A stretch of DNA of 64,000 nucleotides from positions 3,648,001-3,712,000 of the forward strand of contig OZ241986.1 in NCBI GenBank assembly GCA_965204375.1, read 5' to 3'. The translations under genes and the position numbers were made by a program. Below are positions 4,163-10,609 of the stretch, piece after piece (the stretch's first letter is position 1; each line of letters opens with the position of its first letter). The notes beneath the pieces were generated by a model that saw only the letters and a list, made by a program, of their open reading frames with translations, had not been told where the DNA came from and did not search any database. The DNA comes from Candidatus Latescibacterota bacterium (GTDB lineage Bacteria; Latescibacterota; UBA2968).

Positions 4163-4224
4163 GCGGTTAGAGTGCTTGCTTGACATGCAAGAGGTCACTG
4201 GTTCAAGCCCAGTATCGCCCACCA
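4163..4224 (+). pseudogene. 3' fragment of tRNA-Val(GAC), probable attR site of an integrated element
   Basis: GGTTAGAG-TGCTTGC TTGACAT GCAAG-AGGTC-ACTGGTTCAAGCCCAGT-ATCGCCCACCA gives an anticodon arm (GAC), T arm and CCA. The expected 5' GGGCGATTAGCTCAG is replaced by GAGCAATCTGGC, so the acceptor and D stems cannot form properly. Confidence 0.8.
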
Positions 4225-4232
4225 TTAAAAAC

Positions 4233-4270
4233 AATGGGTTACGCAAATTTATGCGTAACCCATTTTCCTT
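4233..4270 (+). terminator. Rho-independent terminator-like hairpin after the tRNA-Val fragment
   Basis: AATGGGTTACGCA-aattta-TGCGTAACCCATT followed by TTCCTTT. Confidence 0.7.
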
Positions 4271-4326
4271 TGATGCCCATCTGGATGCAGCCTTTTTCGG
4301 TTGTAACGTGTGCTATAAAGAGTTTC

Positions 4327-4719
4327 TCAATTATTGCCAATGAGCATATCATCTACAATGTTAACGATCTGGGGAACGCTTGACACCAGAAAGATAATAT
4401 TCAGCGACCGGGGATCAATCTGTTTAGGGATTTGTATGGCTGTGCTCTCAATGTTATTGCATATAGCCTTAGCATCTGGTGTGTCATCGACAAAAGGATC
4501 AATAACCTGTATAAGCCGTCTCTCTGGGGTCTCGGTCTGCACAGTCAGTTGCTCCACAAAATGCTTATCCTTATCTGTTTTCCATCGTGCGATATTCCAG
4601 GTTTCTGAAATAGCTACCTGAATCTGATTTGAACTTTCCTCCTGCATCGCCTGATTATACAGATCCAAGACTTCCTCAGCAAAATCATAATCTTTCTTAA
4701 ATGGAATTAGATTCTTCAT
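4327..4719 (-). CDS. Hypothetical protein (start uncertain: 4719 or 4782)
   Basis: ORF downstream of and co-oriented with 4779..6116; no recognisable motif. Confidence 0.4.
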   Translation of the reverse strand: MKNLIPFKKDYDFAEEVLDLYNQAMQEESSNQIQVAISETWNIARWKTDKDKHFVEQLTVQTETPERRLIQVIDPFVDDTPDAKAICNNIESTAIQIPKQIDPRSLNIIFLVSSVPQIVNIVDDMLIGNN

Positions 4720-4778
4720 CAATTGGCTGTAAGAACATATGTAAACTCCCATCAGGACGACGGTATTGAATGTTGGGA

Positions 4779-6116
4779 TCATAGTTTTTCTTTTAATTCA
4801 CTGATCACTTTATTCACCTTGGACCAGAGAGTAGTGCTCCCATGTAAGCCTCCTGCCAACCCGATGCTGATGAAGCCATCACCAGAATCATCAGGATGTC
4901 TTGGCAGCTCAAGTATCTCATAGCCCGATACTGAATGACGTACAGATTTTAAAGCTAAATCCCTTAGTACTTTCACTTCATTGTCAAGCTTTTGGTCATC
5001 CCATATACTTAAATCCGAAAATGAAAAATTCATAGGTGGTGGTTTGAATTCTTCATGGAAAAACGGTAAGATCAATCTCATAATGTTATCTAGATCTTTC
5101 GAGAAACCCCTTGTTGTTAGAGGCGGTTTGTAAAGCACTACAAGCTTCACAGGAACAAGAAGCGGCATCAACGTTGAGAATTTCTCTCTATATGCATGCA
5201 TCGATTCCTTTGCTTCTTCCCTAAAATTCTTGCTCTCACCTTCACTGACTGGAACAGTGGGAAGCTGAATTTTGATCGGTGAGTGTACGATCCATTTTGC
5301 AAGTCCGGCTGAATATTTCTGTACAAACTGCTCAAGATTTGGAAATGTGCCTAGACCACGATGCAAGGTTCCTGACGCTCGGTATAGAATACTGGCCTCC
5401 CGGATGCCCAATTCACCCTGTCTTAAGAATGCGTTCTGGTCCTGCATCCGGCTGTATTTAACGAGATTGTCATACGCGTTTTTTCCTAATGATTTGATAT
5501 AATAATCCTTATCAGACTTAATACTGCTTAAGTGAGAGAATTCATCAAGGTTATCATCATCGAAGTCTAATCTGAAACTGCTATAGTCATCTATATATTC
5601 GTTATAATTACCACTCAATATCTCTTCCGCTAATTTCAAGTCCTGAAGAAAATAACCCATTGGCATAAACTGACCTGATATGCCTGATTCTTTTCCACCT
5701 AGCGAGTAGCTGATTGCAAGATACTTTATCTGACGATCATCCTGATAAACCAACCCTTTTCTCGTAATACCACTGTCACGTAAAGGCTTGCCAAAGAGAT
5801 CTAAGATATTTTTCGTTGCGGTATGGATGTGAGGGGGATTGGGAGAGGTAGTATTGATCCACACTTCGGCAGCTACGCTTCCCCTAAACGACCTTTTGCA
5901 TCTTTCTTTCATTTGACCCAAAATGGTAGTCTGAAAGCTAATTTTTTCTGCCATCCTCATTGCTCTCTTAGATTTGGGTTCCTCGGCAATGTCATAATAA
6001 CCCCACCCCCGAAACCGGCGCCATTGGTGACGTCCGATCTGTGCTTTAGGCGTCTTAAGAAATTCGGATTTGCTGCCTGAGCTGTCAAATAAGCTTCTGA
6101 AATTCATCATCTTCAT
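4779..6116 (-). CDS. Hypothetical protein with two degenerate RusA-like (Holliday junction resolvase) repeats
   Basis: Repeat 1 VAAEVW...PPHIHTATKNILDLF...LVYQDDRQIKYL and repeat 2 PVKLVVLYKPP...SKDLDNIMRLIL both resemble the RusA pattern DxDN-K-D...DDxQ. Confidence 0.5.
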   Translation of the reverse strand: MKMMNFRSLFDSSGSKSEFLKTPKAQIGRHQWRRFRGWGYYDIAEEPKSKRAMRMAEKISFQTTILGQMKERCKRSFRGSVAAEVWINTTSPNPPHIHTATKNILDLFGKPLRDSGITRKGLVYQDDRQIKYLAISYSLGGKESGISGQFMPMGYFLQDLKLAEEILSGNYNEYIDDYSSFRLDFDDDNLDEFSHLSSIKSDKDYYIKSLGKNAYDNLVKYSRMQDQNAFLRQGELGIREASILYRASGTLHRGLGTFPNLEQFVQKYSAGLAKWIVHSPIKIQLPTVPVSEGESKNFREEAKESMHAYREKFSTLMPLLVPVKLVVLYKPPLTTRGFSKDLDNIMRLILPFFHEEFKPPPMNFSFSDLSIWDDQKLDNEVKVLRDLALKSVRHSVSGYEILELPRHPDDSGDGFISIGLAGGLHGSTTLWSKVNKVISELKEKL

Positions 6117-6120
6117 ATTC

Positions 6121-6705
6121 TCATTTACCTGAATATCCTACAGAAAGTATTTCAGCAATTTTATCCAGATAGGCTTTCAGGGACAATCCGTGACTTCTTG
6201 CCAGAATCCCCAGCGTATCCACCTTTGTCCGTTCTCCCTTTTCGATTCTGCGCACATGGCGTTCCGAAAGACTCTGAATATCGGTTTGCTTAAGCCTACA
6301 CTGTTTTCGAAATGCGGCAACGGCCTCTCCGAACCGAATGTCAGACATCAATCTTTCCCGATCCTTTTTTTCGCGCCACTCATCATCTTTCAGGTATCGA
6401 ACAGCATCCAGGTCGATATGTACATCAGCCTCAGGCCAATGGATATAACTGCCTTCGCTGGAGATGGTAAATGAAGAACGCTGTTCTTCTGGTATGCTCT
6501 TGAGTGCAGGCATTTCTTCAAAGCCAACTCTGAATAGGGTATGGTCACAGGCCACGACAAAAAGCTCATCATCAATAACCTGTGCAGTGGCAATTAGCTG
6601 ATCCGGACATCCAAGACTCCAGGCCGTGAGCACGCGCTTTGGCACATCTTTATCTGAATGCACAAGAATGTTTCGAGTCATTCTCAGTTTTGCCTCATAA
6701 AGCAT
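6121..6705 (-). CDS. DUF2442-like domain + C-terminal XRE-type HTH protein (antitoxin/regulator-like)
   Basis: ISSEGSYIHWPEADVHIDLDAV (DUF2442-like); FGEAVAAFRKQCRLKQTDIQSLSERHVRRIEKGE (HTH_3-like). Confidence 0.65.
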   Translation of the reverse strand: MLYEAKLRMTRNILVHSDKDVPKRVLTAWSLGCPDQLIATAQVIDDELFVVACDHTLFRVGFEEMPALKSIPEEQRSSFTISSEGSYIHWPEADVHIDLDAVRYLKDDEWREKKDRERLMSDIRFGEAVAAFRKQCRLKQTDIQSLSERHVRRIEKGERTKVDTLGILARSHGLSLKAYLDKIAEILSVGYSGK

Positions 6706-6712
6706 CTGTGGT

Positions 6713-6755
6713 AAAACGGGTAGAGAGCCCTGTGATACTCTACCCGTTTTTTATT
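6713..6755. terminator. Terminator-like hairpin
   Basis: AAAACGGGTAGAG...CTCTACCCGTTTTTT. Confidence 0.6.
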
Positions 6756-6871
6756 TCGAAAAAATTTCACATCCTCTGAATCTTTCATCTCTTCGGCTTT
6801 GTCAGAGTCGATACCGCACCAAAACAATGCATAAATGCATAAATGATGGGAGGGGAAAGGAGACTGAAAAC

Positions 6872-7411
6872 ATGCCAGACGAAAGCAACAAACTCTACCT
6901 CTATGAAGCTCTGGAACTCAGGGCTGAATACGATGCCAGGATCAAAACCCTGAAAGATTGCCTGCCAGAAACCAGGCAAAATCGCAATCGATCATTTTTC
7001 AATCGCGATGAAGAGGGCCAATATCGCCCCAATTCCGGGTTCGACATCTCTGAAGTACGCGATCAGATCAAAGCGCTGGAATACAAACGGCGCAAGCTCA
7101 ACAGTGCCATTCAGCAGACCAATTTTCAGCATCAGATGGAACATGATGGCGACACCATCAACCTCAACGAGGCGCTGGAATTGCGAAAAGGCTTGAATGT
7201 ACAAATCGGCGAGCTACACACGCAAGTCGTGGACGCAGCATACCAGCGGGTAATCTACAAAGAAGACCGCGACATTGTAGAACCCAACGAATTGTCATAT
7301 CCCGACAGCGTCCAGGACCTTGAAAGTGTGCGATTGGCTTTTCGGGCGTTAAACAGAAAGTTGCGATCAGCATCTTTTGAAGCCATCGTAGCCTTTCAGG
7401 ACGAGCAGTAA
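6872..7411 (+). CDS. DIP1984-family (DUF6847-like) coiled-coil protein
   Basis: RBS AAGGAG before ATG 6872. Two internal repeats: LYEALELRAEYDARIKTL / LNEALELRKGLNVQIGEL and RKLNSAIQQTNF / RALNRKLRSASF, matching the family pattern LxEALxLR...IQxxN. Confidence 0.7.
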   Translation: MPDESNKLYLYEALELRAEYDARIKTLKDCLPETRQNRNRSFFNRDEEGQYRPNSGFDISEVRDQIKALEYKRRKLNSAIQQTNFQHQMEHDGDTINLNEALELRKGLNVQIGELHTQVVDAAYQRVIYKEDRDIVEPNELSYPDSVQDLESVRLAFRALNRKLRSASFEAIVAFQDEQ

Positions 7412-7416
7412 TCATC

Positions 7417-7617
7417 AATCCGAAAGGAGACAGGGGAGCAAGCGCGACTGCTTCGGTGACGGAGCATAGCCCAGACTGTGGCATCTGTAAAAGCCATCCT
7501 CTTGAGGGGTGACGCTCATAACGTCCGGCAAAGCACCAGACCATTGAGCATCAAACCTCAGAGCAAACAAAGACTCACAGCCAAAAAGCCTTCAGGCTCC
7601 GCATCTCTTTTCGGATT
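7417..7617 (+). ncRNA. Putative ~200-nt structured ncRNA directly downstream of the DIP1984-family gene
   Basis: Closing stem AATCCGAAAGGAGA (7417-7430) pairs with TCTCTTTTCGGATT (7604-7617), extended by GGAGC/GCTCC. Several internal hairpins and an A/C-rich segment; no credible ORF. Confidence 0.55.
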
Positions 7618-7625
7618 CCCACATC

Positions 7626-8492
7626 CTATCCAATCGCCGATCGTTTTGGCAGCGCGGCTCTAAACGCCGCCACACTCTCCCACTCGGAACCCAGTGCGTG
7701 CCGCGAGAATATCGGATCTGGATGCCGATACATCAAATGCGCAGTGCGTCGAATCCGCTGCGTCTGCCGGACAGTCCCGCAGTGATAATTGGCAATATTG
7801 AACATCACAGCAGACCCCGCAGGCGCGTGGACATCGACCCGACCAATCCGTCGGGGATTTGTGCGACCAAAGGAATCTGTCCACATCGGCTTATCCGGAT
7901 CCACATACGCCGTCTCACCATCGTCAATCCGCAAAACACCCTCGCCCCATCCGGTTTTCCCCTCCCGCGTCTTGGGCAATTGTCGCTTGGTCTCGGCACT
8001 CTCTGGAATAAGACTCGTACAGTGGGACTCGGCATCCACATCGTCCAGATAGTAAATCACCTGTATCGCCGGGGCAAAAAACTCATTCCTATCCGCACCC
8101 TCTACAATACCATTGTACTCCCGGTGCCACTGCCGTGAGAGACAAATCGGATCCCCCCCGTCAATATCCTCTGGCGGATCGGCGGCGCACGCCTCGCGCC
8201 GCAAAAAACTCAGACTGCTAAACTGAACACCCGCTCCGAGAATGCGGCGCACCAGTGGCGCAACCGACGGATGGTGAACCAGGCCATCCAGCGCCTCTGT
8301 CCTGTGCATCAGTTCCGGCGCCCTGCAGCCCACCGCTATATGACCCGGACGCGGTCCAGGCTCCCATTCCTTCGGGTGCGCGGCCACATCGGCATCAATC
8401 CCATCGTTAATCGCCGTCACCTCCTCCGGTGAAAGCGCCCCCTCCACCACGGCATACCCGTTCTTCGCAAAACATCTCAGCATCTCGTCCAT
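7626..8492 (-). CDS. Phytanoyl-CoA dioxygenase (PhyH) family Fe(II)/2OG oxygenase
   Basis: FAKNGYAVVEGALSPEEV; WHRE (HxD/E); AGSAVMFNIANYHCG...R; RBS AAGGAG before ATG 8492. Confidence 0.85.
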   Translation of the reverse strand: MDEMLRCFAKNGYAVVEGALSPEEVTAINDGIDADVAAHPKEWEPGPRPGHIAVGCRAPELMHRTEALDGLVHHPSVAPLVRRILGAGVQFSSLSFLRREACAADPPEDIDGGDPICLSRQWHREYNGIVEGADRNEFFAPAIQVIYYLDDVDAESHCTSLIPESAETKRQLPKTREGKTGWGEGVLRIDDGETAYVDPDKPMWTDSFGRTNPRRIGRVDVHAPAGSAVMFNIANYHCGTVRQTQRIRRTAHLMYRHPDPIFSRHALGSEWESVAAFRAALPKRSAIG

Positions 8493-9839: not shown

Positions 9840-10139
9840 ATGGCTTCTTGGCAAATTAAGCAACTCGAAAAAATGAGCGAAACGGATCCCAATTTGATAG
9901 ATGATGTACTCCATCATCTACACCAATCAAACCCTGTACGCCTTGAAAAACTTGTAATAGGTGCTTATCTCGATCATGATATTAACCTCGGCAAAGCAGC
10001 AGAACTTCTCGGTCTGCATCGAGAAGAACTGAGACAACGCTTTCTCAAACAGGGCATTCCACTGAGAGAAGGGAGCCAATCCGTTGATGAATTAAAAGCT
10101 GAAATCGCTGCTGCTGATCAAATGGGGCGTTCGAAGTGA
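9840..10139 (+). CDS. UPF0175-family antitoxin-like protein
   Basis: AYLDHDINLGKAAELLGL...FLKQGIP; overlaps the PIN gene by 4 nt. Confidence 0.75.
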   Translation: MASWQIKQLEKMSETDPNLIDDVLHHLHQSNPVRLEKLVIGAYLDHDINLGKAAELLGLHREELRQRFLKQGIPLREGSQSVDELKAEIAAADQMGRSK

Positions 10140-10609
10140 TCATTATTGACAATACCGTATTGTCTAATTTTGCACGTACAAACCACCTTCAACTATTAGA
10201 ATTATTCTGTCGCAGTCGTGGATTGATCGTTCAGTCAGTCAGAGAAGAGTTTCAACGGGGTATCAATAGAGGCTTATTTTTTGAAACAGACTTATCTTGG
10301 ATGAATCAAATCGATATCACAGATCCCAAAGAAATCTATCTTTCACAACGTTATAGATTGGAGTTGGGCAACGGTGAATCTGACTGCCTGGCTATCGCCG
10401 TATGCCGCAACCATGAACTGCTCACTGATGATCGCAGAGCTCGTCAGATCGGATTTCGAGAACAAATACGTGTTTCGGGAAGTGTTGGTGTTCTTGGTTC
10501 GCTTATCAGACGATCCACAATCTCGTTGCTTGAAGGAAATCAAGTGTTGAAAGAATTTATTAAGGCGGGATATTTCTCGCCCGTTGAAGAACTTGATGAT
10601 TTGATTTGA
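10136..10609 (+). CDS. PIN-domain (DUF3368-like) toxin
   Basis: IIIDNTVLSNF...LGNGESDCLAIA...LLTDDRRAR...GSVGVL. Confidence 0.8.
   Translation: MIIIDNTVLSNFARTNHLQLLELFCRSRGLIVQSVREEFQRGINRGLFFETDLSWMNQIDITDPKEIYLSQRYRLELGNGESDCLAIAVCRNHELLTDDRRARQIGFREQIRVSGSVGVLGSLIRRSTISLLEGNQVLKEFIKAGYFSPVEELDDLI

Follow-up and report, generated by a model that had tools for sequence, protein, structure and literature searches.

A DUF6847-related gene coupled to a conserved structured RNA with a periodic tract: a candidate ribonucleoprotein module in bacteria

The stretch analysed here, a 64,000-nt window of the genome of a Candidatus Latescibacterota bacterium (contig OZ241986.1), carries a gene for a 179-aa helical protein related to the DUF6847 family and, starting 6 nt past its stop codon on the same strand, a structured RNA of about 200 nt. 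Gene and RNA occur together across bacterial phyla whichever of the two is used as the query, the RNA structure covaries, and it encloses an A/C-rich single strand with a period of 8 nt; that this RNA and its coupling to the gene are real is, in our judgement, near certain. We favour, with moderate confidence, a ribonucleoprotein module whose gene and RNA are transcribed together and whose repeats are read by several protein copies, its co-transcription, RNA ends, binding, stoichiometry and function being what we infer. An initial annotation of the same DNA had proposed a system of this kind; the results below confirm what it observed and support its interpretation in part. The parts are the following (coordinates are positions within the window, + is its forward strand):

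6799-6828, + strand: promoter-like site ahead of the gene (TTGTCA, 18 nt, AACAAT), picked out by a consensus scan; function putative.
6872-7411, + strand: gene of the 179-aa internally duplicated helical protein, DUF6847-related and with the 3KDQ fold (open reading frame, Pfam and NCBIfam scores, AlphaFold2 (AF2) model, structure matches).
7417-7617, + strand: conserved structured RNA, complete from one end of its closing stem to the other (covariance model R1, 169 bits).
7417-7431, + strand: 5' arm of P1, outer variable part plus GAGAC, pairing with 7603-7617.
7435-7439, + strand: 5' arm of P1b, GGAGC, pairing with GCTCC at 7596-7600.
7444-7470, + strand: P2, with a GC/GC clamp (7444-7445/7469-7470), a hairpin (7449-7455/7460-7466) and the GNRA loop GUGA (7456-7459).
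7472-7496, + strand: first pseudoknot, CAG 7472-7474 with CUG 7485-7487 and the loop 7479-7482 with 7493-7496.
7506-7525, + strand: second, pseudoknot-like helix pair, of GGG/CCC type (7507-7508/7516-7517) and GACG 7511-7514 with CGTC 7522-7525.
7529-7595, + strand: A/C-rich single strand made up of about eight units of 8 nt, most of them with AGC (or AAC, GAC) at the end.
7596-7617, + strand: 3' arms, P1b at 7596-7600 and P1 at 7603-7617 (inverted-repeat search, covariation counts).

In the window itself the element is delimited by its closing stem, whose 14-nt arms (AATCCGAAAGGAGA, 7417-7430, and TCTCTTTTCGGATT, 7604-7617) lie 173 nt apart and pair with a single G-T. This is one of only two inverted repeats of at least 10 nt within 6700-7700, and it is present in the minimum-energy structure of + strand 7412-7625, which folds at -76 kcal/mol, 200 shuffled sequences giving -55.4 +/- 4.9 (z -4.18, no shuffle as good). 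Energy alone cannot name the functional strand because the - strand folds about as well (z -4.04), and the question was therefore settled by relatives. A PhyH-type dioxygenase gene on the - strand ends at 7626, so that the intergenic space lies between convergent genes.

The same pairing recurs far outside this genome. In 80 loci of other phyla fetched by the protein, the 330 nt past the stop codon were compared, and a ..GAGAC/GUCUC.. stem with arms some 190-200 nt apart recurs across phyla, its outer letters differing; both sequence anchors are found in 70 of the 79 loci possessing a stop codon. With the covariance model R1, built from 57 non-redundant copies, the RNA is found immediately behind the gene and in the same orientation at 67 of 71 loci from outside the genus, the four misses being partial genes or a contig end; it is also present at all 13 further subfamily loci of the same phylum. 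The converse holds as well: when metagenomes were searched for a 20-nt motif of the RNA, at least 118 matches came up and 80 were retrieved, and among the 63 with at least 560 nt upstream an intact-length gene ends within 60 nt of the motif in 54 (remnants in six, nothing in three). The RNA is present in hundreds of environmental sequences. The initial annotation had made its case depend on homologous genes having a comparable structure downstream, which stands for the 179-aa subfamily and not for canonical DUF6847 genes: the RNA is missing at two canonical full-length ones (L115, L116) and at a 119-aa single-hairpin relative (L117). Judged from these sequences, the RNA belongs to the 179-aa subfamily only. 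In L115, another Latescibacterota genome, the canonical 152-aa gene (L115:448-1932) lies beside a divergent open reading frame (ORF) that looks PhyH-like by eye and is followed by about 295 nt of non-coding DNA with no match to the RNA model.

Apparent occurrences in archaea were not accepted. Over 2119 nt the 'Thermoplasmata' contig L073 shares 99.1% identity with a Desulfatibia contig, and over 812 nt the 'Methanophagaceae' contig L103 shares 95% with a deltaproteobacterial contig, so both likely come from contaminated bins; a third, from a Bathyarchaeota bin (L047), cannot be judged, and the family's presence in archaea is unproven.

Covariation, the check that the initial annotation proposed, bears the structure out. 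On an alignment of 71 copies fitted to the model, with some helices added by eye, the paired share of cells is 88.2%, where slid controls reach 32-43%; of the 39 pairs, 33 vary on both sides, and none of 500 shuffles reaches the observed values, a statistic that overstates significance since the aligned sequences are related. RNAalifold on a plain MAFFT alignment predicts 27 pairs, 22 of them compensatory. Helix by helix, (i), the closing stem noticed at the outset, 14 bp with one G-U and extended by GGAGC/GCTCC, is present and covarying, with 9 of 11 compensatory pairs in P1 (GAGAC/GUCUC plus the variable outer part; 7431/7603 is a C-A mismatch in this genome) and 4 of 5 in its inner part P1b (GGAGC/GCUCC; 98.8% of cells paired); (ii), the GCTTCG-GTGA-CGGAGC hairpin noted at 7450-7465 is real and conserved as the P2 core, all five pairs compensatory and 98.5% of cells paired, its loop reading GUGA, GCGA, GCAA or GAGA in relatives, that is, a GNRA tetraloop; (iii), P3 (CAG/CUG) pairs in 95.6% of cells (2 of 3 pairs compensatory), and its loop pairs downstream (AUGGC/GCCAU; 82.3%, 4 of 4) to make the first pseudoknot; (iv), the second pseudoknot interleaves GGG/CCC (92.7%, 3 of 3 compensatory), which is weak in this genome, with GACG/CGUC (74.6%, 4 of 4), the latter already seen as a hairpin at 7511-7525. 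Fitting cannot have favoured P3 or GACG/CGUC, because both lie outside the model. Another hairpin of the initial annotation, CCTC-TT-GAGG (7498-7507), is not conserved in relatives. Many of the G-U pairs would read C-A on the opposite strand, and together with the GNRA loop these frequent G-U pairs identify the functional strand as the gene's own and the molecule as RNA. Sixteen positions of the RNA are invariant across phyla.

A known RNA family was rejected, no Rfam covariance model matching the element: Rfam 15 gives nothing on it at E up to 10 in the window or up to 1 in 10 diverse loci. A ribozyme or a ligand-sensing RNA, independent of the protein and adjacent to it through joint transfer only, would fit this result together with the compact pseudoknotted core and the many invariant nucleotides. 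We nevertheless hold it to be highly improbable: adjacency, order and spacing are near-absolute in both search directions, a long periodic single strand is atypical of either class, and there is no conserved downstream gene to regulate.

The arms could also be read as DNA, as inverted repeats of a mobile-element end, a miniature inverted-repeat transposable element or a recombination site. Within the genus the full gene is found in 9 of 20 other genomes and stumps in two, with 93-97% DNA identity across the element. In 7 of the 9 full-length loci homology with the window stops exactly at 7616/7617; other DNA of 135-190 nt is inserted there in five, the contig of the sixth ends at that point and in the seventh the end of the PhyH gene is about 1.4 kb away. 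Genomes lacking the module have unrelated DNA upstream of the PhyH gene, making the locus a variable island. Both the sharp border and the island are what a DNA-level feature would leave, yet such a reading is scarcely credible when compensatory G-U pairs work on one strand only, the loop is a GNRA tetraloop and no transposase or recombinase travels with the element. A miniature transposable or other repeat element was rejected on copy number, the 6.34-Mb genome of the window holding one copy of the RNA by both BLAST and R1.

The inserted DNA itself lies before the end of the PhyH gene in the five genomes (window 7617-7628; for example L037:4746-4930), and one same-genus genome (G015) has an insertion of about 140 nt that separates the RNA from the stop codon. 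Fragments of the insert, 22-67 nt long, recur at 14 places in the window's own genome, and it looks like a family of short dispersed repeats. Only the start of the gene remains in two genomes: G018 shows a clean deletion (L013, window 6987-7625) joining codon 39 to the end of the PhyH gene with 16 nt between, and in G007 (L012, window 7000-7627) the first 45 codons survive and run into about 1060 nt of unrelated DNA.

In the tract, which is unpaired in the consensus structure, the initial annotation had described loosely periodic units; comparison with relatives confirms the period, both by the spacing of AGC and by autocorrelation. Between CCGG-AAAGC and P1b it measures 62-80 nt (median 67); it is unstructured and has little G (38% A, 27% C, 20% G, 15% U). 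AGC occurs 315 times in 62 distinct tracts against 81.9 expected, a 3.85-fold enrichment, and the distance from one AGC to the next is 8 nt 88 times, 9 nt 19 times and 15-17 nt 71 times, where shuffles give about 1.5 per lag; these figures overstate independence because the sequences are homologous, the period being nonetheless a property of each RNA. Among 55 representatives less than 75% alike, autocorrelation peaks at lags of 8, 16 and 24. Copies with clean patterns hold eight units (L065, for example). The 8-nt units are degenerate and Tandem Repeats Finder reports no array in 7412-7625.

In seven loci (L113, L150, L151, L157, L169, L174, L191) the units read (N3-4)UUAC instead, with the same period and again about eight units. 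Six of them have a detectable gene, whose proteins are 32-38% identical to that of the window; no gene was found beside the RNA of L150. The proteins of this clade depart from the main clade at 17 positions where the latter is conserved to 90% or more, including R23, R52, R63, R74 and R165, and several of the 17 are basic. Letters that change with the protein clade while the period is kept would lend indirect support to a partner reading the units singly; a switch from AGC to UUAC is what a unit-reading protein would produce, without being proof of one. The RNA might instead work mainly with a host factor, its tract soaking up or loading a host RNA-binding protein (for example Rho, an Hfq-like protein or some ring-shaped reader of motifs), and the DUF6847-like protein being an accessory. 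The tract is suitably unstructured and G-poor, an orphan RNA without the gene exists (L208), and sponge and attenuator RNAs with spaced short motifs are familiar from CsrB, CrcZ and the TRAP sites. That gene and RNA stay together over many phyla whose host factors differ, and that the repeat letters shift along with the neighbouring protein clade, both speak against this, and we judge a host factor improbable.

The family assignment of the protein is distant. The initial annotation had called it DIP1984-family. It passes the Pfam DUF6847 (PF20935) gathering threshold of 27 with 29.5 bits, residues 7-88 matching model positions 64-140 of 141, a borderline membership that falls to 26.6 bits in a six-frame genome search; the NCBIfam model DIP1984_fam (NF038048) gives 27.8 bits, under its cut-off of 70. 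By these scores it is a distant subfamily, outside the DIP1984 family in NCBI's sense. The fold does agree: the AF2 model (pLDDT 86.9) has four long helices and two small beta hairpins, and a single structural relative stands out clearly, 3KDQ from Corynebacterium diphtheriae, which we take to be DIP1984, a name absent from its entry title. Foldseek finds 3KDQ at E 4.4e-4 (TM 0.72/0.83; runner-up E 0.29) and VIA at Z 13.1 with an rmsd of 2.8 and 152 of 152 target residues aligned (runner-up Z 8.9). The Protein Data Bank (PDB) entry for 3KDQ is titled 'functionally unknown conserved protein from Corynebacterium diphtheriae'. The internally duplicated helical build, also read from the sequence at the outset, is borne out by the helical model and by the alignment of the two halves with each other (33% identity over 80 residues, E 9e-4); both halves, in six-frame searches, fall on the DUF6847 model only within its C-terminal ~80 positions. 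Homologous proteins number 680 at E <= 0.001, identity between phyla is about 60-70%, and 49 columns are invariant across phyla in 27 sequences; the family is large and unusually conserved. A homodimer prediction scores 0.37 against a mark of 0.42, which favours neither binding nor its absence. The ESM Atlas gives the DUF6847 cluster to which the protein belongs and, at 0.94, a 'Siphovirus Gp157 family' cluster, a possible lead. PADLOC gives no match for it, so that it is no known defence protein; a PDB sequence search returned chance-level coiled-coil matches only, and plasmid, phage and IMG/VR collections contain no relative. The literature search, which did not take in subscription journals or supplements, found no published function for the protein and no description of the RNA.

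Taken together, these observations suggest a two-part module of a two-repeat helical protein and an RNA of about 200 nt transcribed with the gene from the same strand. The RNA forms a compact head, made of the GNRA-capped hairpin and two pseudoknots, with its ends locked by P1 and P1b, and P1 also encloses the 65-70-nt unstructured tract of about eight 8-nt units. Copies of the protein would line this tract with one unit per protein repeat, giving four two-repeat proteins on eight sites, and the folded head would seed the assembly or cap it. Among the mechanisms, binding of the tract by the protein has the best support, and we consider it fairly probable. Because the module moves as a unit between distantly related bacteria and turns up in islands where toxin-antitoxin, transposon and defence genes gather, it probably plays a selfish or protective part as a two-component system whose RNA would hold the protein in check; a toxin-antitoxin-like or defence role in particular is a tentative guess from that context. 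Going further, the module could represent an undescribed ribonucleoprotein class, in which a pseudoknotted RNA 'ruler' with eight 8-nt sites arrays four two-repeat (or eight) DIP1984-fold copies and restrains an active or toxic protein until infection or loss of the module. This version we think unlikely; if true, it would be a new and structurally unrelated analogue of type III toxin-antitoxin or abortive-infection systems, spread by horizontal transfer over many phyla of uncultured bacteria.

Several observations, besides the relatedness of the aligned sequences, weigh against a protein-read module. The change from AGC to UUAC is one event on a long branch that drift or another reader could explain, and both motifs end in purine-C. 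The protein's conservation seems to us high for a toxin, and no catalytic or toxic domain is recognisable by Pfam, NCBIfam or PADLOC, DUF6847 being the sole Pfam match. The pairing has its breaks: at L097 the gene is full-length but the RNA is reduced to its 5' part, and L208 (1-1200), one of the three metagenome loci without a gene, has a full RNA of 157.8 bits and no DUF6847-like gene in the 1000 nt upstream. In L208 the RNA is preceded by a nucleotidyltransferase-like ORF and a HepT-like RNase (123 bits). RNA libraries, for their part, give hints of expression in favour of the module: 17 runs contain part of the stretch, and in four of them, from four studies, gene and RNA are covered by contigs. 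A complete contig reaches from 6831, just past the promoter-like site, to 7583, and another ends at 7616 without a loose end; these contigs may contain DNA and prove neither transcription nor ends.

Contigs that bridge gene and RNA would also be expected if the element were a cis-acting device in the 3' untranslated region of its own mRNA, either a long-range terminator with an exonuclease block or a transiently bound autoregulatory site, with no free RNA or stable particle. The start 6 nt past the stop codon, with no room evident for a separate promoter, agrees with this, as does a U-rich stretch after P1 in 70 of 121 distinct RNAs (at least 5 U per 8-nt window within 20 nt). However, two pseudoknots, a GNRA loop and 16 invariant positions exceed what stability or termination needs, the counted periodic tract would be left without a role, and RNAs outlast the loss of the gene. 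Extra gene-less copies are also known: on the chromosome of the planctomycete-like Candidatus Uabimicrobium (L096) one gene is followed by three RNA copies (4514-4716, 5059-5266 and 5275-5480), with 87% mean column identity and each ending in a T run, the second and third preceded by the last ~15 nt of the gene. We therefore regard a purely cis-acting device as rather unlikely, and the ribonucleoprotein module remains our preferred reading.

One close comparison is with type III toxin-antitoxin systems (ToxIN, CptIN, TenpIN), whose repeats of about 34-45 nt lie upstream of the toxin gene. The likeness is that a protein gene is paired with a repeat-containing non-coding RNA, that the module lies among toxin-antitoxin and defence genes, and that RNA copies persist after the gene decays. 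According to PMC8860590 and PMC13682666, the RNA of these systems binds and inhibits the protein; PMC8860590 describes an endoribonuclease as toxin and multiple RNA repeats in an array as antitoxin, individual repeats and the toxin forming a cyclic complex. In contrast, the window protein is all-helical with the DIP1984 fold and has no ToxN, CptN or TenpN nuclease match by Pfam, PADLOC or fold, and its RNA lies downstream of the gene as one folded unit with degenerate 8-nt repeats and no tandem array detected. The suggestion that the system works in the manner of type III toxin-antitoxins thus fails on their defining features (endoribonuclease, upstream RNA, tandem array). Retron non-coding RNAs (msr-msd) are similar in their ~200 nt, a long closing stem that pairs the ends, internal hairpins and a place in defence-type islands; they precede a reverse transcriptase gene, whereas here the RNA follows the gene of a helical protein, and no reverse transcriptase family is found among the 4 window proteins scanned or among 150 of the 219 listed neighbour ORFs of other loci. 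The module is outside the type III toxin-antitoxin families, the retrons and any Rfam family.

Other RNAs carry periodic motifs for oligomeric proteins, TRAP binding spaced GAG/UAG triplets and CsrB/RsmZ presenting GGA motifs. Here too short motifs are regularly spaced on unstructured RNA and the number of units suits several subunits; unlike them, the module has another protein fold and other motifs, its tract lies inside a closing stem with a pseudoknotted head, and its RNA is encoded in cis directly after the protein gene. With the canonical DIP1984/DUF6847 proteins (PF20935, NF038048, 3KDQ) the protein shares its fold, a two-hairpin architecture and a weak but real sequence match, and differs as a distinct 179-aa subfamily with an RNA that the canonical genes examined lack. 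A dedicated RNA partner would be a concrete lead and the first functional handle on this fold. The RNA itself, about 200 nt long, ornate, supported by covariation and without an Rfam family, represents a new class, and its architecture, a folded head and a counted array of eight 8-nt units inside one closing stem, is unusual and yields testable predictions on stoichiometry and on AGC/UUAC motif swaps. Should the module prove to be a toxin-antitoxin or defence system, it would add a new protein-RNA type to those systems.

Clustering of 370 crude neighbour ORFs revealed no partner gene common to phyla. Loci of the PVC group (Verrucomicrobiota, Victivallales and others) are the only ones with an XRE-type regulator upstream (5 loci: L081, L083, L084, L089, L094) and with a 367-403-aa protein downstream, 150-290 nt past the gene (6 loci: L080, L081, L083, L084, L092, L094), of which the example in L083 has no Pfam match. 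Among the 150 neighbour ORFs scanned, of 219 listed, Pfam names mark 18 as components of type II toxin-antitoxin systems, and there are 6 transposases; Wadjet, TOTE, type I restriction-modification, Fic and DUF4143 ATPase genes also occur.

In the window, a probable type II toxin-antitoxin pair lies near the module (9840-10609), a UPF0175-family protein (30.9 bits) overlapping by 4 nt a weak PIN-like protein, whose 20.3 bits fall short of the cut-off. An exact 8-nt tandem repeat (AATGCATA, 2.5 copies, 6826-6845) in what is putatively the 5' leader of the module's gene overlaps the end of the promoter-like site. Further upstream lies a cassette (4232-6714) with a 445-aa ORF on the - strand (4779-6116), which has no match in Pfam, NCBIfam or PADLOC, and a DUF2442 plus helix-turn-helix-like protein, also on the - strand (6121-6705). 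G007 is without this cassette, 6715 there joining sequence that matches window 4189-4231, and the cassette border is marked by a perfect 13-bp hairpin followed by a T run (6713-6750).

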